From Bacilli bacterium (GTDB taxonomy: Bacteria; Bacillota_I; Bacilli_A; RF39; UBA660), in contig JBAMOY010000001.1 of NCBI GenBank assembly GCA_037071015.1, positions 192,117 through 256,116 on the forward strand: DNA of 64,000 nt, in the 5' to 3' direction. The notes beneath the pieces are model-generated. The model saw nothing but the letters and a program-made list of their open reading frames with translations, was not told where the DNA came from and searched no databases. A program made the translations under genes and the position numbers. Shown piece by piece: positions 10,873 through 31,287 of this stretch (the first letter of the stretch is position 1; each line of letters begins with the position of its first letter).

Positions 10873-10976
10873 TTATAAATATTAGCAAATTTACCAAAAT
10901 TTACCAATTAATCATTAATTTATTGTGATAAATATGATACAATTAATATAGTTACAGTTTGCACGGAGTGGTAAAG

Positions 10977-12278
10977 ATGCCAAAAATATTTTTAGATAAA
11001 GATGTATATAGTGCCACTGATGAGCGCTTAGATTATATTTTTACACATTTTGATAATTACTTATTTTCTATTAGTGGTGGAAAAGATAGTAGTGTTATGT
11101 TGCAATTAGCGGCTAGAAAAGCAAGACAAGTAAACAAAAAAATTAGTGTTTTATATATTGACTTTGAAGCTCAATATAAAGCTACAATTAATCATCTAAC
11201 TGATTTAATAGAGGAAATATCTGATGTTTTAGATAATTGGTATTGGATAGCTTTACCTATATCATTACGCAACGCTGTATCAGTTATCCAACCAAAATGG
11301 ATTTGTTGGGATAAAGACGAACGCAAAAAATGGGTTAGAGAGATGCCAGATAATAAGTATGTTATAAACGAAAAAAACATTCCTAAAGATTGGACATGGT
11401 TTTATAAAGGAATGGAATTCGAAGAGTTTATTTTGTATTTTTCTGATTGGTTTAATATGAAAAATGGTGGCTTAACCGCCTGTGGTATTGGTATTAGAAG
11501 CAATGAAAGTTTAAATCGTTTAGGAACTATTATCAATCCACGGAAGAAAAAATTTAATAATAAGAGTTGGACAACGAAAGTTTATTTAAAGCGCAAAGAG
11601 ACAAATGTTTATAATGTTTTTCCCATTTATGATTGGACAACTGAAGACGATTGGACAGCCATTTTTAAATACGATTTAAAGTATAATTATATTTATGAAC
11701 AATTATATAAAAATGGTGTTCCTTTGAGTGAACAACGATTATGTCAACCTTATGGTGACGATCAACGTAAAAGTTTAGATCAATTTAAAGTTTTAGAATA
11801 TGAGACTTGGGAAAAAGTTGTTAATCGTGTACATGGTGTTAATTTTGGAAATATTTATTGCCGAACGGGACTTTTAGGTCATATCAAAACCGAAAAACCT
11901 GATAATATGACTTGGCAGCAGTATTCTGTATTTTTGCTTGAAAGTCTAGGTCTTTATGCACCAGAATTACGAGATCATTATTATCGTAAGATAAAAATGT
12001 TTTTAAATTGGTATGAAAAAAAATATGGTATTACATATAAAGACATTAAAGATGAAGAACCAAAAAAATTAGAAAATTTAAAAAAAGTTGCTAGTTGGCG
12101 AAGAATTGCTCGTGCGATTGAACATAATGATTTTTGGATGAAACGATTGAGTTATGGTCAAAATAAAAAGGATGTCAAAATCTTATTAGAATTAAAAAAA
12201 AAGTACGACAATTTAGTTGGTAATGAATTAGACGATGAAAACTTAAAAGAGATATCGAGAATTATAAGTGGAGGTTAA
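10977..12278 (+). CDS. PAPS-reductase-like PP-loop ATP-pyrophosphatase with a long C-terminal extension (IbrA-like)
   Basis: PP-loop SISGGKDSSV near the N-terminus, with about 250 aa of C-terminal extension as in the DUF3440 portion of IbrA. ATG 10977 has a GGAGTGG ribosome-binding site; the ORF track uses the upstream TTG 10959. Confidence 0.7.
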   Translation: MPKIFLDKDVYSATDERLDYIFTHFDNYLFSISGGKDSSVMLQLAARKARQVNKKISVLYIDFEAQYKATINHLTDLIEEISDVLDNWYWIALPISLRNAVSVIQPKWICWDKDERKKWVREMPDNKYVINEKNIPKDWTWFYKGMEFEEFILYFSDWFNMKNGGLTACGIGIRSNESLNRLGTIINPRKKKFNNKSWTTKVYLKRKETNVYNVFPIYDWTTEDDWTAIFKYDLKYNYIYEQLYKNGVPLSEQRLCQPYGDDQRKSLDQFKVLEYETWEKVVNRVHGVNFGNIYCRTGLLGHIKTEKPDNMTWQQYSVFLLESLGLYAPELRDHYYRKIKMFLNWYEKKYGITYKDIKDEEPKKLENLKKVASWRRIARAIEHNDFWMKRLSYGQNKKDVKILLELKKKYDNLVGNELDDENLKEISRIISGG

Positions 12279-12283
12279 GTGAG

Positions 12284-12715
12284 ATGTACGAAGTAAAAGA
12301 GTATATGGGAAATTATAATAAGGAACAATTTTATGCAATTATGGGTCGCTTTTTTGCCGAACGTGTTTATCGTAAGAAACTGCCATATCTATGCAATGAA
12401 CGTGATAAAATATGGTATTTATTTTATCGTGCCAAAGATTTGGTTGGTTTTTGTGCAATCAAACCTTTAGAAAATTATACTTTAATATCTGATATATATG
12501 TTTTAGATCAGTTTAAAGATGCTAATGTTTTCGAGTTCATGGCGAAATATATTACTAATCATTATGCCAAAAATGATTTACAAATATTAACTAATTCTGA
12601 TCGTGAAAAAGACATTTGGGAATTTTTAGATTTTAAGGTTGTTAATCGTCGAGGGACTTATATGATTTGTAGAAGGGAAAAAGTTGATGAAAGAAATCAA
12701 GTTTCCAGTTCTTAA
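12284..12715 (+). CDS. Small alpha/beta protein with a possible degenerate GNAT-like fold, nested in the IbrA/IbrB-like operon
   Basis: 143 aa. A GGAGG ribosome-binding site precedes it. It starts 6 nt after the upstream stop and overlaps the downstream gene by about 30 nt. It has a beta-strand/hydrophobic pattern (LVGFCAI ... DIYVL) but no clear acetyl-CoA P-loop. Confidence 0.3.
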   Translation: MYEVKEYMGNYNKEQFYAIMGRFFAERVYRKKLPYLCNERDKIWYLFYRAKDLVGFCAIKPLENYTLISDIYVLDQFKDANVFEFMAKYITNHYAKNDLQILTNSDREKDIWEFLDFKVVNRRGTYMICRREKVDERNQVSSS

Positions 12716-13220
12716 CGTTAAGATGGTTCCGATTGATAAAGTTGTAGCAAATGATTACAATCCTAATAAAGTAGCACCACCGGAAATGAAGTTATTGAAA
12801 CATTCGATTGAACATGATGGATATACACAGCCGATTGTAACTTATTACGATAAAAAGAAAGATATTTATATTATCGTCGATGGCTTTCATCGCTATCGTT
12901 GCGCCAAAGAATATTTTAAATTAAAAGAAATTCCTATTGTTGAAATAAATAAGGATATTAAAAATCGTATGGCTTCGACGATTAGGCATAATCGTGCTAG
13001 GGGTTCACACCAGATTAAAGATATGAGCACTATTGTACGAAATCTTGTCGAAAGAGGTTGGTCAGATGAGAAAATTTGTCAAGAATTAGGAATGGAAATA
13101 GATGAAGTTATTCGGCTAAAGCAGATAACAGGATTAAAAGAAGCTTTTCAAAACCATGAATTTAGTAAATCATGGGAAGAATTTGAAAAAAAGTATTATT
13201 CTGACGTATCAGTACATTAA
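12687..13220 (+). CDS. ParB/Srx-fold nuclease-domain protein (IbrB-like)
   Basis: ParB N-terminal domain motifs: the start of the protein (IKFPVLNVKMVPIDKVVANDYNPN), VDGFHRYRCAK (the DGxHR box) and an Arg-rich RHNRARG box. 178 aa. Confidence 0.65.
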   Translation: MKEIKFPVLNVKMVPIDKVVANDYNPNKVAPPEMKLLKHSIEHDGYTQPIVTYYDKKKDIYIIVDGFHRYRCAKEYFKLKEIPIVEINKDIKNRMASTIRHNRARGSHQIKDMSTIVRNLVERGWSDEKICQELGMEIDEVIRLKQITGLKEAFQNHEFSKSWEEFEKKYYSDVSVH

Positions 13221-13249
13221 AAGAAGATATTAGTTTTTAATATCTTCTT
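13221..13249. terminator. Bidirectional terminator between the IbrB-like gene and rnj
   Basis: AAGAAGATATT-agttttt-AATATCTTCTT hairpin flanked by A/T runs on both sides. It overlaps the last codons of rnj. Confidence 0.5.
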
Positions 13250-14927
13250 TTTGTTGATTCTTTTTTATATCCATAATTACAGGCAAAATAATTGGTTTTC
13301 TACCTGTCTTATCATATATAAAACTACTTAAATCATTAATAATCTCAGCTTTAATATCAGTATAATTAATATTTTTTGTTATTTTATTTAGAATAGATTT
13401 TTTACTGATTTGTTCTAACTCTTTTAATAATTGTTCGTTTTCATTGACTGTAATAAAGCCTCTAGTCGTAATATTAGGATTATTAAGCAATTGATGTTTA
13501 ACTGTATCAATATTGGCTATAACGATAACTATTCCATCATTAGCCATAATATTTCTATCCTTAATAACTGCATTTCTGATATCACCAATTCGGTTACCAT
13601 CGACATAAACATCACCGGCTGGAACTGTGCCAGCTTTAGTTATTTTACCTTTATACATAGATAACACATCACCGTTATTTAATACAAATGTATTTTGTTT
13701 TGGAATGTCACATAGAGTTGCAATTTCTGCGTGACGTTTAAGCATTCGATACTCACCATGAAATGGCATGAAATATTTGGGCTTTATTAATCTTAACATC
13801 AATTTTAATTCCTCTTCATTGCCGTGACCAGAAGTATGAATATCACTAAGTGAAGTATTCGTATAAACTGAAACGCCTTTAAGATATAATTTATTAATAG
13901 TTCTAGATATACTAATAGCGTTACCTGGAATAGCTGATGAAGAAAATATAACGGTATCATCTGGTTGTAACTTAATTTGTTTATGACTGCCATTAGCAAT
14001 CCTACTTAGTGCTGCTAATGGCTCACCTTGAGATCCCGTACAAAGTAAGCAAACTTGTTCAGGAGGTAAATGATTAGCCTCATCTGGTGTGATAAATATT
14101 TCTTTATTTTTTATATATCCACCTTGAATTGATATCTCAATATTATTGTCCATACTACGACCGAAAACAGCAATTTTTCTTCCGTTTCTTTTACAAGTGT
14201 CTACGATATGTTTTAGCCTGTATATGTTAGAAGCAAAAGTTGCGATTATAATTCTACCTGTATTTTTGTCAAATATTTCACCTAACGCTTCGTCGACTTT
14301 TGATTCGCTAGCACTCATACCATCATTTAGGGCATTAGTACTATCACTAAGTAATAAGGTAACACCTTGTGCTCCAATTTTGGCCATTTTGTGTAAATTA
14401 GCCATTGGTCCAATCGGTGTCAAGTCAAATTTAAAATCTCCCGTTGTTACGATAGTTCCATTAGGTGTGTGAACACAAATACCATGTGAGTCAGGAATAG
14501 AGTGAGTTGTCATAAAAAACTCTACTTCCATATTTTTAAATTTAACTCTAGTCTTTTCCGTATAAGCAAATAAATTTTTATATTGAATATTGCGATCCTC
14601 AAATTTCTTTTTAATTAATCCGATAGCTTGATTAGGGGCATATATTGCCGGAATATTAATATTTTGTACTAAAAAAGGAATGCCACCAATATGATCCTCA
14701 TGACCGTGGGTTATAAATAATGCTTTGATTTTTTTCTCATTTTTTTTCAAAAAGGTAAAATCAGGGATAACATAATCTACTCCCATTAGTTCTCCTTCTG
14801 GGAATGTGATACCAGCATCCGTAATAATGAGTTCATTATCATGCATTATACAGTACATATTTTTTCCAACTTCATTTAACCCACCTAGAGCAAAAATTTT
14901 AGTATCGCCGTTGTTAAAAAATTTCAT
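13230..14927 (-). CDS. rnj: Ribonuclease J (metallo-beta-lactamase/beta-CASP RNase)
   Basis: The THGHEDHIGG motif, a beta-CASP domain and a C-terminal dimerisation domain. 565 aa, the typical RNase J1 length. Confidence 0.9.
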   Translation of the reverse strand: MKFFNNGDTKIFALGGLNEVGKNMYCIMHDNELIITDAGITFPEGELMGVDYVIPDFTFLKKNEKKIKALFITHGHEDHIGGIPFLVQNINIPAIYAPNQAIGLIKKKFEDRNIQYKNLFAYTEKTRVKFKNMEVEFFMTTHSIPDSHGICVHTPNGTIVTTGDFKFDLTPIGPMANLHKMAKIGAQGVTLLLSDSTNALNDGMSASESKVDEALGEIFDKNTGRIIIATFASNIYRLKHIVDTCKRNGRKIAVFGRSMDNNIEISIQGGYIKNKEIFITPDEANHLPPEQVCLLCTGSQGEPLAALSRIANGSHKQIKLQPDDTVIFSSSAIPGNAISISRTINKLYLKGVSVYTNTSLSDIHTSGHGNEEELKLMLRLIKPKYFMPFHGEYRMLKRHAEIATLCDIPKQNTFVLNNGDVLSMYKGKITKAGTVPAGDVYVDGNRIGDIRNAVIKDRNIMANDGIVIVIANIDTVKHQLLNNPNITTRGFITVNENEQLLKELEQISKKSILNKITKNINYTDIKAEIINDLSSFIYDKTGRKPIILPVIMDIKKNQQKEDIKN

Positions 14928-21861: not shown

Positions 21862-22131
21862 ATGTTATTTGGTAGAAGATTTGGCTGTTGTAACAACATG
21901 ATGATGGATAATTGTTGTCCTCGTCAAAATGAATGTGAAAGGGAAGTTATCGAACCAACAATTAATAAATGTGTTGAAAGAGAATTCTGTCATGAAGTAC
22001 CACATGTTTGTCCAATTCATACTCATGTTATAAATCGCCATATTTATAAACATACTTATACACCACAATATACTTGTTCAGAAGAAAACCAAGTTGTAAA
22101 TGAAGATTGTGGAGGTTGTTGTGGTTTTTAA
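21862..22131 (+). CDS. CotD-like Cys/His-rich inner spore coat protein
   Basis: VPHVCPIHTHVINRHIYKHTYTP resembles the B. subtilis CotD core (VPHIHPQHTTNVNHQHFQHVHY.PHT). It has Cys clusters at both ends (CCNN..CCP; CGGCCGF). 89 aa. Confidence 0.5.
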   Translation: MLFGRRFGCCNNMMMDNCCPRQNECEREVIEPTINKCVEREFCHEVPHVCPIHTHVINRHIYKHTYTPQYTCSEENQVVNEDCGGCCGF

Positions 22132-22132
22132 A

Positions 22133-22158
22133 AAAAGATAATTTAATTATCTTTTTTT
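22133..22158. terminator. Bidirectional terminator between the CotD-like gene and the first M15 peptidase
   Basis: AAGATAAT-tta-ATTATCTT hairpin with a T7 run. The hairpin loop contains the stop codon of the minus-strand gene. Confidence 0.45.
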
Positions 22159-22835
22159 ATTTGACCGTATTTATCTAAATATTCTTCTAAAACTAAATCT
22201 TCGCTATAAATTGTTTTAGCTACATTAACACCAACATAACGATAATGCCAAGGTTCATATTTAAATCCTGTCTCTTGTGTCTTATTTTTAGGATAGCGCA
22301 TTATAAATCCATACAAATGCGCATTATTTTTCATCCACTCGAATTCATCGCTGTCTTCAAACTTATCATAATCATTATTGGATCCCATAACATCCACAGT
22401 TAATCCCGTTTGATGTTCAGAATGACCGGGTCTAGCACTACAACTATCAGCATAAGCTTGACCTTTTTCCTGGACATAATAGTTATATAGTTCAGCTTGA
22501 TAATCATAGTTACGATAAGTAGAAGTAGCAATAATTTTGTAGCCTAAAATACTAGCATCCCTACTTAAGTTTTCAAAAGCTAATGCTGCTTCTTCTCGCA
22601 GATATTTATCTTTAATCGCATATTTTTCATTTAAAAGTATTAATTCTTTCGGTATAAAATCTTTAGGTAATTGATTTTTTTTGTTGACTAATACGAGAAT
22701 ATCATTAGGGTTATCTATTATTTTAATATCTTTATAGGAATCATTGTTAAAGAAATTGATATCTTTAGTAAAGAAGACAACAATCAAGATAAACAAGACA
22801 ATATAAACGCATTTTTTGAAAGTTTCACTTGACAT
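22143..22835 (-). CDS. VanY-type D-alanyl-D-alanine carboxypeptidase (peptidase M15B), paralog 1
   Basis: SARPGHSEHQTGLTVDV (the zinc-ligand H-x-H region) and EPWHYRYVG. An N-terminal signal anchor. The start follows a GGGTGATAGT ribosome-binding site. Confidence 0.8.
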   Translation of the reverse strand: MSSETFKKCVYIVLFILIVVFFTKDINFFNNDSYKDIKIIDNPNDILVLVNKKNQLPKDFIPKELILLNEKYAIKDKYLREEAALAFENLSRDASILGYKIIATSTYRNYDYQAELYNYYVQEKGQAYADSCSARPGHSEHQTGLTVDVMGSNNDYDKFEDSDEFEWMKNNAHLYGFIMRYPKNKTQETGFKYEPWHYRYVGVNVAKTIYSEDLVLEEYLDKYGQIKKDN

Positions 22836-22896
22836 ACTATCACCCACTATATTATATGAATAATAAAATTTAATTTAACAAAAAACAGGTATAAGA

Positions 22897-24102
22897 TTAT
22901 ACCTGTTTTATAAAAAATTCATAGTATTCTTCATATGTTATATTTAGTTCTTTGATTTTCTTTGCGACTTCAGTTCCCACATAGCGATAATGCCAAGGTT
23001 CGTATATATAGCCAGTAATATTTTCTTTACCTTTAGGATATCTTAGGATAAAACCATATTCATGACAGTGTTCTTTTATCCAAGTAAATTCATTTGTTGA
23101 TTCAAACGTTCCAAGATCAGCTACAACGTTAGCTTTAGACATGACATCTATGGCTAATCCTGTTTGATGTTCAGAATATCCAGCTCGTGCTGAATAGGTA
23201 TCAGCTTCCGCTTGTCCATTTTGGTTAACATAACTTTGATATAACCCTAATTGAGTATTGTAGCTACGGTATGGTGATCTAATATATAATCCTAATCCTT
23301 CTTTACTAGCTGCATCAGCCATTTTAACAAAGGCTTCATAGGCTTCTTTTTGTAGTTGCTGAGCATACCCGTATTTAGTATCGATAGTAATTAAGTTATT
23401 TGGTATATAATTATTATCTAGTTTATAATATTTATTAACTAAAATTAAATTACCCTTGCTAGTATCTGCTTTTTGAACATTGGTATAGTATTCATAATCC
23501 AGATTACTATTAACGTTGGTTATAATTTCTCCATATGATAGGTTAGGATGTTTATTTTTATAGTTATTATATCTTTCGAGATTAGTATTTTTAAAATAGG
23601 GTTCTGCTACTAATTTATCCATTCCATCCGTATAGGTCATCGTTATGGTATCAATATCTTTGTTGACGATTGTTATGATATTGTCGATTTGTACTTCTTT
23701 ATTGTTTAAGTAATAGTTTATATACCGTTTTAAACGATTAACGTCAAAATCTTGATGGTTAATTATTTTATCAAAATTTTGATCGTAATCATTGTTGATA
23801 TTGTTATTTACTAATAAAATAATTGTACTATAAGAAACATTTGGATTGTTTTTATAATACTTTACATAATTATCTAAATTGTTTTGTTTAAAATTTTTAT
23901 CATTTAGTAATTGATCAATATTTTTAATGTAAACTTTATTTAATGTTTTTAAATTCTTTTTGGGTATGTTTTTTTTAATTGTTGTAATCTCTTTGATAGA
24001 GTAACCCGTTATTTTTAACTTTATTTCTTGGTTAAATATTACTAATAATATAGTGATTATTAGTGTAGTTAAAAGGGTATATATTATAATCTTTTTTTTC
24101 AT
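22897..24102 (-). CDS. VanY-type M15B carboxypeptidase, paralog 2, with an N-terminal repeat-domain extension
   Basis: SARAGYSEHQTGLAIDV and EPWHYRYVG at the C-terminus. The N-terminal roughly 200 aa contain repeated NxSYxxIIxxVN modules. Signal anchor. Confidence 0.8.
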   Translation of the reverse strand: MKKKIIIYTLLTTLIITILLVIFNQEIKLKITGYSIKEITTIKKNIPKKNLKTLNKVYIKNIDQLLNDKNFKQNNLDNYVKYYKNNPNVSYSTIILLVNNNINNDYDQNFDKIINHQDFDVNRLKRYINYYLNNKEVQIDNIITIVNKDIDTITMTYTDGMDKLVAEPYFKNTNLERYNNYKNKHPNLSYGEIITNVNSNLDYEYYTNVQKADTSKGNLILVNKYYKLDNNYIPNNLITIDTKYGYAQQLQKEAYEAFVKMADAASKEGLGLYIRSPYRSYNTQLGLYQSYVNQNGQAEADTYSARAGYSEHQTGLAIDVMSKANVVADLGTFESTNEFTWIKEHCHEYGFILRYPKGKENITGYIYEPWHYRYVGTEVAKKIKELNITYEEYYEFFIKQV

Positions 24103-24172
24103 CTTATCACTCCATTATAATTATAAAATTATTTGATGGTTAAAGCAAGTAAAAAAATAGACTTATTAAAGT

Positions 24173-25108
24173 CTATTTTAAATAGTATGCATAATATTCA
24201 TCATAAGTAATATCTAAATCATGGATTTCTTTAGCAATTTTTTTACCGACATAACGATAGTGCCAAGATTCATAATCATAACCAGTTATATAGGTTTTAT
24301 CTTTTGGATAGCGTAAAATGAATCCATACTTATAACTGTTTTTTTGTAACCACTTAAATTCATCAGTATTTTCAAAGTTATCCATCGTACTATTGTAAGT
24401 GACAATGTCTAAAGTAAGACCAGTTTGATGTTCAGAATAACCTGGTCTAGCTGAAACACTGTCAGCCCATTCTTGTCCTTTTTGATTAGCGTAACTCTTA
24501 TGAATTTGTTCTTGTTCTTCATAACTACGATAAGAAGAAGTGACAATAAGAGTTAAATTTTCTTTGCTAGCAGCATACCACATATCTTTAAATGCTTCAT
24601 ATACATGTTCGCGAGCTTTATTATCATAATAAGCATATTGTAAAGGAATATTAACTAAATCGTCTGGTTCGTAATCTTTATTTAAATAATTATATTTGTT
24701 GACTAAAATTAAATCTTTCTTACTCATATCAGTTGCTTTTGTTTTGGTGTAGTGTTCACGGTTGGTTCCAACATTTACAATACTGACGACATCTTTAATT
24801 GACTCTTCGCTATTATCTTTGAAGTATTTTAAATAATCAGTAAGATTATCAAAGATAAAATATTTTTGTTTGATAAAATCATCAATATTTTTGTTGTAAT
24901 CCATTTTCAATATGGTTTCAATTTGTTTGTTATCTAATTTTTTAATCCTTGTAATTTCTTCATCTTGATAACCGATTTTGCTGAGCTTATAGTCATAGCT
25001 ATTACGATAGTCGATAAATTTCTTTAATCCAATACCACCTACAACTATAATTAAAATAGCAACAATAACAACGACAATAGGAATAATTTTAATTCTTCTA
25101 TTTTTCAT
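24173..25108 (-). CDS. VanY-type M15B carboxypeptidase, paralog 3
   Basis: SARPGYSEHQTGLTLDI and ESWHYRYVG. I prefer the start at MKNRRIKII after a GGTGATAGT ribosome-binding site; the ORF track extends to 25201. Signal anchor. Confidence 0.8.
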   Translation of the reverse strand: MKNRRIKIIPIVVVIVAILIIVVGGIGLKKFIDYRNSYDYKLSKIGYQDEEITRIKKLDNKQIETILKMDYNKNIDDFIKQKYFIFDNLTDYLKYFKDNSEESIKDVVSIVNVGTNREHYTKTKATDMSKKDLILVNKYNYLNKDYEPDDLVNIPLQYAYYDNKAREHVYEAFKDMWYAASKENLTLIVTSSYRSYEEQEQIHKSYANQKGQEWADSVSARPGYSEHQTGLTLDIVTYNSTMDNFENTDEFKWLQKNSYKYGFILRYPKDKTYITGYDYESWHYRYVGKKIAKEIHDLDITYDEYYAYYLK

Positions 25109-25222
25109 ACTATCACCTAGAATAATTATACTATTATAATTGAGTGGTGTAAATAGTAAAAGGCAATAATAAATTTGTACATATTTTGACATCATTTTCA
25201 TAGATTTTAATAGAGGTGACTT

Positions 25223-26392
25223 ATGAAAAAAGTTTTAGTATCTATATTAATAGTTATTGTTTTAATGCCTTCTTTTGGGGTTCGGGCTTTAGAAAACGAT
25301 GACTTATCGTTAGGCAAATCAGCCAAATCAGTAGTTTTATTAGAAGCTAGTACAGGAGAAATAATTTATAAACGAAATGAAAACGAGAAATTACATCCTG
25401 CATCAATGACTAAAATGATGAGTATGCTACTTATCATGGAAGCAATTGAAAAGGGAAGTTTGAAATGGACTGATATGGTAACTGCCTCAGAAAACGCTTC
25501 TAGTATGGGTGGTAGTCAAATTTTACTTGAAACTGGCGAAAAAATGAGTGTTGACGATCTATTTAAGGGTATTGCTATTGCTAGTGGTAATGATGCCGTT
25601 GTTGCATTAGCTGAAAAAGTAGCCGGCACAGTGGATGCCTTTGTCAAGATGATGAATGATAAAGCTAAAGAGTTGGGACTTAAAAATACAAACTTTAAAA
25701 ACCCCCATGGATTAGATGCTACGGATCATTATTCTAGTGCCTATGACATGGCGATGATTGGTAGAGAACTAGTAAAACATGAAAAGGTGTTAGAATACAG
25801 TTCAATCTATGAATATTATCTTCGTGACGGGACCGATCGTAAAACTTGGTTAGTAAATACAAATAAATTAGTTAGGTTTTACGATGGCGTTGATGGTCTT
25901 AAAACAGGATATACTAAAGAAGCAGGTTATTGTTTAACTGCAACTGCTATGAAAAATGGTATGCGAATTATCGCAGTAGTTATGGGTGAACCAGATAGTA
26001 AAACCAGAAATAAAGAAGTTACAGAATTATTAGATTATGCTTATGCTCAATATGATTTAGACACCATTATTAGTACTAAAAAAGTGCTTGGCAAAAAAGC
26101 TGTTAATAAAGGAAAACAAAAGTATGCTGAGTTAGTTTTGACAGAAGATGCTACTAGTCTAGTGAAAAAGGGAGAAAAAAGTCAAGATGTTACATATGAA
26201 ATTAACACTTATAAATTAACCGCACCTATTAAAAAAGGTGATGTAGTAGGAACATTAACTTTAAAAAATAAAAATAAAGAAATTAAAACAATTGATATAA
26301 CCGTTAAAAATGATATTGATAAGGCTAACTTTTTAGATTTATATTTTAGTAATTTGAAAGACATCATTAGTGGTGAGCTTAATTTAAAATAG
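25223..26392 (+). CDS. dacA: D-alanyl-D-alanine carboxypeptidase (peptidase S11, PBP5/DacA-type)
   Basis: Signal peptide. The active-site SxxK is ASMTKMM, with an SGN motif and the KTGYT motif. A C-terminal beta-sandwich domain. 389 aa. Confidence 0.8.
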   Translation: MKKVLVSILIVIVLMPSFGVRALENDDLSLGKSAKSVVLLEASTGEIIYKRNENEKLHPASMTKMMSMLLIMEAIEKGSLKWTDMVTASENASSMGGSQILLETGEKMSVDDLFKGIAIASGNDAVVALAEKVAGTVDAFVKMMNDKAKELGLKNTNFKNPHGLDATDHYSSAYDMAMIGRELVKHEKVLEYSSIYEYYLRDGTDRKTWLVNTNKLVRFYDGVDGLKTGYTKEAGYCLTATAMKNGMRIIAVVMGEPDSKTRNKEVTELLDYAYAQYDLDTIISTKKVLGKKAVNKGKQKYAELVLTEDATSLVKKGEKSQDVTYEINTYKLTAPIKKGDVVGTLTLKNKNKEIKTIDITVKNDIDKANFLDLYFSNLKDIISGELNLK

Positions 26393-26460
26393 TAATTTAA
26401 TTACTATTTTTTTTGAAGGAATTTAACTTTAAAAGGATGTATGTTTTTTATAGAGAGGTG

Positions 26461-27699
26461 ATGAATTTGAAAAAAATAATTTTAGCGGTTATATTGCTGG
26501 TTATAGGAGGTGCAAAGGCTCAGGCGGCTAATATAACTGAAAATAAAATCAGTAATATATTTGCTAATCAGAATTATAACGGGCAAGAATTATCAGCTAG
26601 TTTTGGCTATATGTATGCCGATGATATTATTGCCTATTGTATCGATCCCGGAATTCCTTTAAAAGTTGGCTATTATGATAAGACGTTAGATTTCAATTAT
26701 AAACATATTGATCAAACTAAAAAAGAGAAACTTCAATTGATTGCCTATTATGGTTATCAATTTCCTGGGCATGATACTGATAAATATTATTTAGCAACTC
26801 AGTCATTAATCTGGGAAACGATTGGTTCAACTAATATCAGCTTTACAACGGAACGTCATCGTGGTGGACAGGCGATCAATATCGATGGGGAAAGAAAAGA
26901 AATTTTAGATAATGTTAATAAAGTTCTAACATTACCGTCTTTTGCTAATACGAAAGTTGAAGGATATTTAGGTGAATCAATTTCGCTTGATGATGTTAAT
27001 AATAATTATTTTAATTTTGGTTATACATCAAATAATAAAAATAGTTATAATTTCAACAATGGAAAATTTAATATTGTTTTAAAGGAATTGGGATCCGGAA
27101 GAATTAATATCATCAAAAAAATAAGTAGTAGTAAAGAAAGCGCCTTGTTCTATGCTGATGGTTATCAATCATTAGTTACTTTAGGAATTGATGTTACTAA
27201 AGAGGGCTATATAGATATTTTAGTTAACGATCCTAATCGTGTTAGGTTAAAAATTAATAATTACGATAAAAATGATAATAGCCCGCTTAAAAACAGTTAT
27301 TTTAAAATAAAAGATTTAAAGACAAACCGTTATTTATCTTATAAGAGTCAAGAAGTATTTATTACAGATGTTTCTGGTACTATTATTTATCCCGATTACA
27401 TCAATAGTGGTCAATATCAATTGGAACAAATTCAAGTTGATAATGATTATATTTTAAGTGATCAAAAGATTATTTTTGATGTTAATAAAAATACACCGAC
27501 TATAAATATTGATGGTGAGCAATATTTGAATATTGATTTTCATAACACTAAAAAGGTTATTGGTCAAAGTAATGATATAAAAAGTAATTTTGATAAAATG
27601 CCTCAAACATCAGATAGATATACCTTGTATAATATTTTATTATTTTTAATTTTGATTATAGGTATAAAATGTTATTGTTATGCAAAAAAGAGTAGTTAA
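26461..27699 (+). CDS. Thioester-domain (TQXA) surface protein with a class-B-type sortase sorting signal
   Basis: Signal peptide. A Cys in AYCIDPGIP and the Gln motif ATQSLIWE (TQxA[IV]W) typical of Gram-positive thioester adhesin domains. The C-terminal MPQTS motif is followed by a hydrophobic helix and a KK tail. The next gene is a sortase. Confidence 0.55.
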   Translation: MNLKKIILAVILLVIGGAKAQAANITENKISNIFANQNYNGQELSASFGYMYADDIIAYCIDPGIPLKVGYYDKTLDFNYKHIDQTKKEKLQLIAYYGYQFPGHDTDKYYLATQSLIWETIGSTNISFTTERHRGGQAINIDGERKEILDNVNKVLTLPSFANTKVEGYLGESISLDDVNNNYFNFGYTSNNKNSYNFNNGKFNIVLKELGSGRINIIKKISSSKESALFYADGYQSLVTLGIDVTKEGYIDILVNDPNRVRLKINNYDKNDNSPLKNSYFKIKDLKTNRYLSYKSQEVFITDVSGTIIYPDYINSGQYQLEQIQVDNDYILSDQKIIFDVNKNTPTINIDGEQYLNIDFHNTKKVIGQSNDIKSNFDKMPQTSDRYTLYNILLFLILIIGIKCYCYAKKSS

Positions 27700-28222
27700 A
27701 AATATTGGCGTCTTTCTTTTTTTAATATCATTTACTAGCTTAGTATTTATCCGAATATCACGACAATCTATATTAATCGAGGAACGTAAGATAATTAATA
27801 ATTTGAGTAAAAATAGTACAGCATTTAATCAAATTGATAATGACATTATAGGATATTTAGAAATTGAACGGCTCAATATTAAGAAGCTTATTAAAAATGG
27901 TGTTGGCAATGATATCCTAGACCAAAATATTATTGGAATGCTAGAAAGTGGTATTATTGGTGCTGATAATAATGATATCGTTTTGGCGGGGCATAATATA
28001 CAAGAAGTTTTTCAACACTTGCATCAAATAAAAATTGATGACATAGTAAAAATAACAACTAATGATAGTTGTTATCGTTATAGGGTCCGAAAAATTTTGA
28101 CTGTTAATGATACCGATGTACAATATTTATTAAATAAACATCAAAATCATTTAACTTTAATCACATGTACTAATATTTCTAATAAACGGTTACTAGTTAT
28201 ATGTGATTTAGTCGTTTTTTAA
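27680..28222 (+). CDS. Sortase (class-B-like transpeptidase)
   Basis: Catalytic His in LAGHN, an LTLITC Cys motif and a downstream Arg. 180 aa, overlapping the upstream substrate gene. Confidence 0.8.
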   Translation: MQKRVVKNIGVFLFLISFTSLVFIRISRQSILIEERKIINNLSKNSTAFNQIDNDIIGYLEIERLNIKKLIKNGVGNDILDQNIIGMLESGIIGADNNDIVLAGHNIQEVFQHLHQIKIDDIVKITTNDSCYRYRVRKILTVNDTDVQYLLNKHQNHLTLITCTNISNKRLLVICDLVVF

Positions 28223-28432
28223 ATTTTGTTGAAGTGTTTTTAAAATATTATTCTTTAAAACTTCATCACTGTTTGCCCATAAAATTTCAAAGAAGACCCC
28301 TAAACCTGGAAGAGTAATTTCTTCCTTTTCTTTTAGTGAATCGGCAATAGAATTTTTTATATCTTCAGTGGTGGCGCCTTGAAAATTGTTTATTATACTT
28401 TTTCTAATATCAATATTCATATAAGTAATCAT
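28208..28432 (-). CDS. Small hypothetical protein (74 aa)
   Basis: ORF convergent with the sortase gene. No recognisable motif. Confidence 0.25.
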   Translation of the reverse strand: MITYMNIDIRKSIINNFQGATTEDIKNSIADSLKEKEEITLPGLGVFFEILWANSDEVLKNNILKTLQQNLKND

Positions 28433-30854: not shown

Positions 30855-30886
30855 AAAAAATACTTTTATAAAAGTATTTTTTTTTA
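30855..30886. terminator. Bidirectional terminator
   Basis: AAATACTTTT-ata-AAAAGTATTT, a 10-bp stem, flanked by an A8 run and a T9 run. Confidence 0.5.
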
Positions 30887-31198
30887 CATCATTTGATAAT
30901 TAGACCCAAAAGATGTTGTATTATTAGTTGATGTATTGTTTTCTAATCGCGTTACACGACGATCTAAGTTATTTATTTGTTGTTGCATTTGATTTAATTG
31001 TTGTTCAATTGTATTAGAAGATGAATACTGTGATGATTGATTAGTTGACATCATATTATTTGCCGGGATAGCACCAGCGTAACCATATGTTGGTGGCATT
31101 GGTATTGGCATATTTGGAGCCATCATTCCAGGTGCCATCATTCCTGGATAAGTTGGATATACAGGATAAGAATTACCTCCACAATTTCGATCTTTTTT
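30884..31198 (-). CDS. Small Pro/Met/Gly-repeat protein with a C-terminal coiled coil (possible spore-coat-like)
   Basis: PGMMAPGMMAPNMPIPMPP repeats and a QQLNQMQQQINNLDRRVTRLENN heptad. I place the start at TTG with an AAGGAG ribosome-binding site; the ORF track's GTG start at 31210 directly abuts the RBS. Confidence 0.3.
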   Translation of the reverse strand, partial: KKDRNCGGNSYPVYPTYPGMMAPGMMAPNMPIPMPPTYGYAGAIPANNMMSTNQSSQYSSSNTIEQQLNQMQQQINNLDRRVTRLENNTSTNNTTSFGSNYQMM

Positions 31199-31287
31199 CA
31201 AAAAACTCACTCCTTCTTTGTTCTAATTAATTATATGCGATTGTTTATTTTTTGTTCTTAATATGTTATAATTGTCATGGTGATAAT

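Follow-up and report, generated by a model that had tools for sequence, protein, structure and literature searches.

A compact thioester adhesin and its overlapping sortase gene in an uncultured gut member of the Bacilli

Which surface system is encoded by two overlapping genes of an uncultured gut bacterium, and by what chemistry might it work? The genes lie at positions 26461-28222 (+ strand) of a 64,000-nucleotide (nt) stretch of a Bacilli genome (GenBank assembly GCA_037071015.1, contig JBAMOY010000001.1, positions 192,117 to 256,116), which is called the window in this text. Few bacterial proteins are known that bind their targets covalently; thioester adhesins, on which most work has been done in pathogens, are one kind. 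A preliminary description of the window had proposed that the first gene encodes such an adhesin and the second a dedicated sortase of class B type, which together might form a minimal pilus or a unit of covalent adhesion. The motifs and open reading frames that it listed were all present where it had placed them. Our analysis makes it likely that the two genes form an operon for covalent surface adhesion, found in a gut member of the Bacilli that has a low GC content and endospore genes, in which a SrtD-like sortase acts on an LPxT[S/N] signal. The partner of the thioester cysteine, the nature of the sorting signal and the class of the sortase all differ from what had first been described.

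The adhesin gene and the overlapping sortase gene

The adhesin precursor gene (26461-27699, +) encodes 412 amino acids (aa) when read from the ATG at 26461, from which all adhesin residue numbers are counted here. The mechanically called reading frame opens earlier, with the TTG at 26413. Translation probably begins from the TTG at 26467 rather than from the ATG, because this codon gives a protein that starts with MKKIIL, as the orthologues do, and lies 6 nt past the ribosome-binding site GAGAGGTG (26453-26460). The sortase gene (27680-28222, +) encodes a membrane-anchored protein of 180 aa, similar to the sortase CpSrtD of Clostridium perfringens. The end of the adhesin gene and the start of the sortase gene share 20 nt (27680-27699), which suggests translational coupling. 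The overlap and the LTLITC motif of the sortase (its residues 158-163) had both been pointed out before, correctly.

In a Pfam scan, the thioester domain (TED, PF08341) scored 40.7 bits against a cut-off of 22 (E=3.4e-10, residues 57-129), the SpaA domain of the adhesin (PF17802) 40.4 bits against 23.1 and the sortase domain (PF04203) 73.2 bits against 26.6 (E=2e-20). As these scores all exceed their cut-offs, the features of the two proteins are not chance matches. Judged from its sequence, the adhesin is a minimal TIE protein, consisting of a predicted signal peptide, a class II TED, one putative isopeptide stalk domain, a short linker, the hexapeptide MPQTSD, a membrane helix and a KKSS tail.

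We aligned the adhesin with 12 orthologues, all metagenomic and 52-82% identical to it (alignment A1). Among the loci that were fetched, every sortase (12 of 12) was encoded directly downstream of a TED gene and overlapped it, and this arrangement occurred in at least three chromosomal contexts. The overlaps measured 11-32 nt in loci L001, L003, L019, L088, L089, L090 and L092. The idea of a dedicated pair of substrate and sortase is borne out by this arrangement. Distant TED genes, with the signals IPDTG, VPNTG, VPDTG, VPDTY and IPKTS, also preceded an overlapping sortase gene, of 165-197 aa, and were located between leuS and rnj or beside a PrsW-like gene. In one metagenomic protein of 651 aa (P0182), a TED, two SpaA domains, an MPNTG signal and a membrane helix with KKKKR were continued in the same frame by a further membrane helix and an entire sortase domain. 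This may be a genuine fusion of substrate and enzyme, or an artefact in which an indel of one base joined two overlapping genes.

When the GTDB species representatives were scanned with the adhesin profile, no close orthologue was found. A distant TED-sortase pair was present in 3 of the 80 loci that were taken from a scan of the same database with Ffh. At NCBI, proteins at least 90% identical to both gene products were paired on a 1.2-Mb contig of a metagenome-assembled genome (MAG), which carries MEI3529664.1 and MEI3529665.1, under the names 'Cys-Gln thioester bond-forming surface protein' and 'sortase'. Standard annotation can already recognise the unit.

The thioester domain and the stalk

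The adhesin begins with a putative Sec signal peptide (residues 1-22; 26461-26526, +), which has a basic N-terminus, a hydrophobic core and an A-x-A motif; cleavage is predicted between AQA and AN. The N-terminus of the mature protein, AANITE(D/N)KI, was kept among the orthologues. The TED follows at residues ~23-256 (26527-27228, +). It contains the motif AYCIDPGIP (residues 58-66; 26632-26658, +) with the predicted thioester cysteine, Cys60 (26638-26640, +), and the motif ATQSLIWE (residues 112-119; 26794-26817, +), which is the signature helix TQxxΦW with Gln114 and Trp118. A second glutamine, Gln236 (27166-27168, +), stands in the sequence GYQSLV. Cys60 was the sole cysteine of the adhesin outside the membrane helix and was invariant in alignments A1, A3 and A4. 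The T, Q, L, I and W of the signature helix were also invariant, as was Gln236 in A1 and A3. In these last two alignments, Cys60, Gln236 and T-Q-x-L-I-W remained unchanged in homologues down to ~20% identity.

The best match in sequence was the TED of SaTIE of Staphylococcus aureus (6fx6), to which the TED profile aligned over the full domain (E=4e-21). The thioester seen in the SaTIE crystal joins Cys296 and Gln467 (Miller et al. 2018, PMC6194298). In our alignment, Cys60 paired with residue 47 of the 6fx6 chain, which is Cys296, and Gln236 paired with residue 218, which is Gln467; the offset between the two numberings was taken from the construct boundaries in the same paper. The Cys-Gln spacing is 176 residues here and 171 in SaTIE. 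According to that paper, the bond-forming cysteine of a TED sits in an [YFL]CΦζ motif and the glutamine in a weak ΦQζΦΦ motif, and the Gln and Trp of TQxxΦW adjoin the thioester, whose formation does not require them. In the window protein, A-Y-C-I-D fits the cysteine motif, Y-Q236-S-L-V the glutamine motif and T113-Q-S-L-I-W118 the signature helix.

The fold agreed with these alignments. An AF2 model of the TED alone, built from a diverse alignment of 14 rows, had a pLDDT of 90.3 and a β-rich second half. An earlier model of the full-length protein, built from 13 close orthologues, had a pLDDT above 90 for the stalk domain and below 50 at residues 16-82, which made it unusable for the TED. 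Foldseek searches of the TED model against PDB returned 6fx6 at the top (E=1.7e-14, TM 0.64) and 6fwv (BaTIE of Bacillus anthracis), and no other significant matches. We assigned the domain to class II because these two class II TEDs were the only significant fold matches. The preliminary description was thus right that the protein is a thioester-domain adhesin, in which the Pfam score and the class II match agree, and right about Cys60 and the signature motif. Its choice of Gln114 as the partner of Cys60 did not stand: the glutamine of TQxxΦW flanks the bond, and it is Gln236 that aligns with the crystallographic Gln467. The predicted thioester pair is therefore Cys60-Gln236 and not Cys60-Gln114.

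The stalk is a single domain of SpaA/CnaB type (residues ~257-365; 27229-27555, +; Pfam SpaA 40.4 bits). Its candidate isopeptide triad, Lys264, Glu322 and Asn362, was nearly invariant in the orthologues and aligned with K, E and N in 9vo5, the structure of a SpaA-like domain; it is the triad usual for CnaB isopeptides. An isopeptide bond probably links Lys264 to Asn362, with Glu322 as the catalyst.

SaTIE and BaTIE (BasC) were the best matches in both sequence and fold, and they share the plan of the window protein: an N-terminal class II TED after a signal peptide, with the cysteine, the bond glutamine and TQxxΦW conserved, then isopeptide-type stalk domains (CnaB/SpaA) and a C-terminal sorting signal. 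The identity is only ~19%, however, and the differences are considerable. Three to four isopeptide domains are present in SaTIE and BaTIE, together with ester domains in the case of SaTIE, whereas the window protein has one stalk domain in 412 aa. Their signals are LPxTG (LPATG in BaTIE) rather than the MPQTS of the window adhesin or the LPKTS of its orthologues. They also depend on the housekeeping SrtA, while the window adhesin has an adjacent sortase of its own.

The sorting signal and the class of the sortase

The C-terminal sorting signal of the adhesin (27598-27696, +) comprises MPQTSD (residues 380-385; 27598-27615), a hydrophobic stretch of 23 residues (386-408), RYTLYNILLFLILIIGIKCYCYA, and the tail KKSS. 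By analogy with the general sortase mechanism, cleavage is predicted between Thr383 and Ser384. The layout is the tripartite one of an LPXTG anchor, with the pentapeptide MPQTS, or LPKTS in the orthologues, in place of LPXTG. In a scan of the adhesin and of TED proteins from the wider family, no NCBIfam model matched, the LPXTG-anchor model included. The signal had thus been described correctly as a non-LPXTG signal with a hydrophobic helix and a KK tail. Its supposed resemblance to NPQTN did not survive the comparison with the 12 orthologues, which had LPKTSN, LPKTSD or MPKTND and gave the pattern [LM]P[KQ]T[SN][DN]xY with the consensus LPKTSN. Because the orthologues carry LPKTS(N/D), MPQTS is to be read as a variant of LPxT[S/N] and not of NPQTN.

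With alignment A4, an exhaustive profile search revealed the same type of TED in 2,081 representative clusters (clustered at 50% identity) at E<=1e-3 and in 691 at E<=1e-30. We surveyed the signals of the best 150 family representatives, of which 114 had a recognisable one. The first position of these was V in 80, I in 13, M in 8 and L in 6. The residue after Thr was G in 23 signals, S in 22, L in 20, Y in 18, E in 9, D in 7 and A in 5. Across the wider TED family the signals follow the pattern [VILM]PxT-x and vary after Thr, which is mildly new. One subgroup of TED-sortase pairs (L019, 1242-3111; L035, 1240-3154; L038, 2-1826; L092, 1093-2665) had no plain hydrophobic helix and basic tail after the signal; the segment that follows VP(D/N)T(G/Y) in these loci was amphipathic, with many Trp and Arg residues, e.g. 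LLTPFSWVRIFEYVRSILSAFKLS.

The sortase has an N-terminal membrane helix at its residues ~8-27 and no C-terminal helix. Its His105, Cys163 and Arg170 were invariant among homologues and aligned with the catalytic residues of CpSrtD (4d70). The generic NCBIfam sortase model, TIGR01076, was passed with 63.1 bits (cut-off 39.35). The class models told a different story. The top class match was NF058671 (sortase_SrtD), at 69.8 bits against a cut-off of 140, and the other class D model, NF033746, gave 62.3 bits against 165. Between the two ranked the class C model, which also failed (65.7 bits against 160). The class A and class B models did not match at E<=1. In PDB the best match was CpSrtD, with E=8e-27 for the family profile and 4.7e-14 for the single sequence. 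Single-sequence searches gave 2e-10 to 5e-7 for class C enzymes and ~3e-6 and weaker for class A enzymes, which thus came below SrtD and class C. No LPXTG protein was found in the 64-kb window. For class D, the nearest relative and the adjacent substrate of LPxT(A/S) type agree, while the NCBIfam score does not.

Because no curated class threshold was reached, the class was set by the nearest neighbour. The best description of the enzyme, from sequence comparison, is a CpSrtD-like sortase (class D/C-like) that is accepted by no curated class model; this is mildly new. That the TED-linked sortases form a single clade was not supported: the family profile gave 97 bits for CpSrtD and 45-71 bits for other TED-linked sortases. 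A more tentative idea, which we hold to be less likely than not, is that the small sortases whose genes overlap those of class II TED adhesins in uncultured gut Bacilli with reduced genomes form an unclassified specificity group between classes C and D; it would recognise a relaxed [VILM]-P-x-T, and the identity of the residue that follows the scissile Thr would not matter to it.

Two dedicated sortase operons with class D enzymes offer parallels. CpSrtD (Suryadinata et al. 2015) is of similar size (187 aa, 180 aa here) and shares the N-terminal anchor and the H/C/R triad. Its gene forms an operon (PMC4498605) with that of CPE_RS01465, the presumed substrate, whose signal LPQTGS has the P-Q-T core in common with MPQTSD. 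The CpSrtD substrate, however, has Gly after Thr, where the window adhesin and its orthologues have Ser or Asn. In the window the genes overlap, the substrate is a TED adhesin, and the sortase has 69.8 bits against the SrtD cut-off of 140. The yhcR-yhcS operon of Bacillus subtilis is bicistronic, and its class D sortase is co-transcribed with an LPDTS substrate (PMC3222306). We liken it to the window by its layout, substrate and then sortase, and by its LPxTS signal, in which the fifth residue is not Gly. YhcR itself is a large nuclease/nucleotidase and no adhesin.

The proposed mechanism is as follows. The adhesin would be exported via Sec, after which its class II TED would form the internal Cys60-Gln236 thioester by itself, with the TQSLIW helix packed against the bond. 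The single SpaA/CnaB domain would serve as a short stalk, locked by the probable Lys264-Asn362 isopeptide with Glu322 as its catalyst, while the C-terminal helix and the KKSS tail would keep the precursor in the membrane. The co-translated sortase, with His105, Cys163 and Arg170, would then cut between MPQT and SD, after Thr383, and transfer the adhesin to an amine of the peptidoglycan cross-bridge. Finally, an amine of the target (e.g. of a lysine) would attack the thioester, which would leave a permanent intermolecular amide bond. Of all this, the analysis shows what the domains are, which of their residues correspond to those of solved structures and that the coupling of the genes is conserved; the formation of the bonds, the site of cleavage, the acceptor in the wall and the target of adhesion are inferred.

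Setting of the locus, competing readings and meaning

The window has a GC content of ~29% and looks like ordinary chromosome, with ftsY, ffh, secA, rnj and genes of penicillin-binding proteins (PBPs) together with spore genes (CotD-like, SspI). The nearest Ffh proteins in GTDB species representatives were at most 82% identical and belonged to gut MAGs (human, ruminant, rabbit, mouse and chicken), which were labelled Bacilli, 'Tenericutes' or Erysipelotrichaceae. Endospore genes flank the locus, whereas the closest Ffh relatives were deposited as 'Tenericutes', Mycoplasmatota or Bacilli MAGs. Upstream of the adhesin lie an ORF for a Cys-rich CotD-like protein of 89 aa (21862-22131), three tandem paralogues of VanY-type D,D-carboxypeptidases (22143-22847, 22897-24102 and 24173-25201, all -) and, divergent from this block and directly upstream of the adhesin, a gene for a PBP5/S11 carboxypeptidase (25223-26392). 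Downstream, sspI encodes a small acid-soluble spore protein (28208-28432, -). Orthologous loci kept the order ffh, CotD-like, three VanY, PBP5, TED gene, overlapping sortase, sspI, LemA, DUF2207 and trmB, and the VanY-PBP5 block (22143-26392) was conserved in L001 and L003.

The spacer upstream of the adhesin is AT-rich, 68 nt long and without a convincing promoter. A search upstream of the adhesin for promoters of sporulation sigma factors and sigma-70 gave 25 consensus matches, against 24.9 expected from shuffled sequence. Just past the PBP5 stop codon, at 26391-26412, there is an AT-only palindrome, AGTAATTTAATTACT, with a run of T. It may be a weak terminator between PBP5 and the adhesin-sortase operon; a terminator scan that required G-C pairs did not call it.

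The slot between leuS and rnj holds different genes in different genomes. In the window, a PAPS-reductase/DUF3440 protein (IbrA-like) and a ParB_N protein (IbrB-like) are encoded there, at 10959-13220, just upstream of rnj (13230-14927, -), while the related MAG loci L019, L088 and L090 have a TED-sortase pair in this place. A second TED-sortase pair was not found in this slot of the window. Beyond sspI, the segment 28534-30854 comprises the LemA gene and then a gene for a DUF2207 membrane protein that ends in a long Gly/Ser run, SSGGGGFSSGGGGGGSFGGGGGGGGFR. A further ORF of 108 aa (30884-31210, -) has an N-terminal half of low complexity, rich in Pro and Met (PGMMAPGMMAPNMPIPMPP), and a C-terminal half rich in Gln and Asn. 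It had no Pfam match, and its position was kept in L001 and L003.

Could the locus be something other than an operon for SrtD-like anchoring of an adhesin? The preliminary description saw a system of class B type, with a class-B-like sortase and an NPQTN-like signal; systems of this type are those of IsdC anchoring and of the class B pilus sortases of Streptococcus pyogenes. P-Q-T is indeed common to MPQTS and NPQTN, and the TED-bearing Cpa of S. pyogenes is processed by a sortase of the class B family. The window sortase, however, had no match to the class B model TIGR03064 at E<=1. Class B chains in PDB were reached only at ~1e-4, and only with the family profile that gave 8e-27 for SrtD; with the single sequence there were none at E<=1e-3. 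The enzyme has 180 aa and lacks the extra segments of class B sortases, which have ~220-250 aa, and the orthologues have LPKTS(N/D) and no NPxT. We therefore regard a class B system as extremely improbable. Cpa, a thioester adhesin of the pilus tip, and AbpA-SrtB of oral streptococci (PMC4974636) do resemble the window locus in that a thioester adhesin, or a dedicated non-LPXTG one, is combined with a specialised, co-encoded sortase; the difference is that these sortases belong to the class B family. Cpa also differs in having class I TEDs and in being built into a pilus of several subunits, whereas the window locus has no backbone pilin. A pilus nevertheless deserves a hearing of its own, in which the sortase would be a class-C-like polymerase that joins the adhesin head to tail through a lysine. 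The class C and class D models score almost alike (65.7 and 69.8 bits), class C was the top match for more distant TED-linked sortases, and Lys29 is conserved in the N-terminus of the mature adhesin. The V/I-P-x-T-G signals of the wider family also resemble those of ancillary pilins, such as the VPDTG of RrgC. Against this, the sortase has neither the DP[FWY] lid motif of class C nor a C-terminal membrane anchor, its chain stopping just past the last β-strand. In the adhesin, a search for [YFW]PK[NTSD] found no pilin motif of YPKN type, and there is only one stalk domain. Neither the window nor the loci examined contained a second pilin gene, and the nearest solved enzyme is an SrtD of the anchoring type. 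The minimal pilus that had been suggested is thus highly unlikely.

A role in sporulation is the classical one for class D sortases, and it is also unlikely here. The adhesin would be fixed to forespore or spore-associated peptidoglycan, which would give spores with a covalent adhesin. The closest characterised enzymes are class D sortases, and these act during sporulation of B. anthracis (PMC4498605). The CotD-like gene, sspI and four D,D-carboxypeptidase genes lie nearby and are kept in orthologous loci. These neighbours are separate transcription units, though, with sspI on the opposite strand, and the 68-nt region upstream of the adhesin has no convincing sporulation-sigma promoter. Other TED-sortase pairs, which lie between leuS and rnj, have no spore genes in their vicinity, and YhcS of B. 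subtilis works in vegetative cells of the stationary phase. Anchoring during sporulation could also be an added feature of the adhesion operon rather than an alternative to it. The reading of the locus as a dedicated operon for covalent adhesion has points against it as well. The sortase reached only 62-70 bits with the NCBIfam models of classes D and C, whose cut-offs are 140-165. Two relatives of the TED protein, P0028 (with the signal VPRTS) and P0031, had no adjacent sortase; the coupling is strong but not universal. Further sortases or substrates may be encoded beyond the 64-kb window. Within it, there was no second sortase by the family sortase profile and no second ORF with a C-terminal signal of sortase type.

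TIE adhesins and dedicated sortase-substrate operons are both well known; taken as a whole, the locus is a compact variant of the two and in this respect fairly ordinary. What interest remains lies in the unclassified sortase and in the variability after the cleaved Thr. The locus also holds two lessons for annotation: the glutamine of the TQ motif is not the bond-forming one, and a P-Q-T core is no proof of a class B sortase. The non-Gly residue past the cleaved Thr, and its variation across the family, are of possible interest for sortase specificity and protein ligation. If there is indeed an unclassified group of sortases intermediate between classes C and D, it would widen the rules of sortase recognition and supply enzymes with new ligation specificity. 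For the organisms themselves, the locus shows such a system in its most compact form: a single TED, a single stalk domain, a sorting signal and a sortase of its own, conserved as a unit on the chromosomes of uncultured gut commensals. The likely attachment mechanism of this lineage is testable with two small recombinant proteins.

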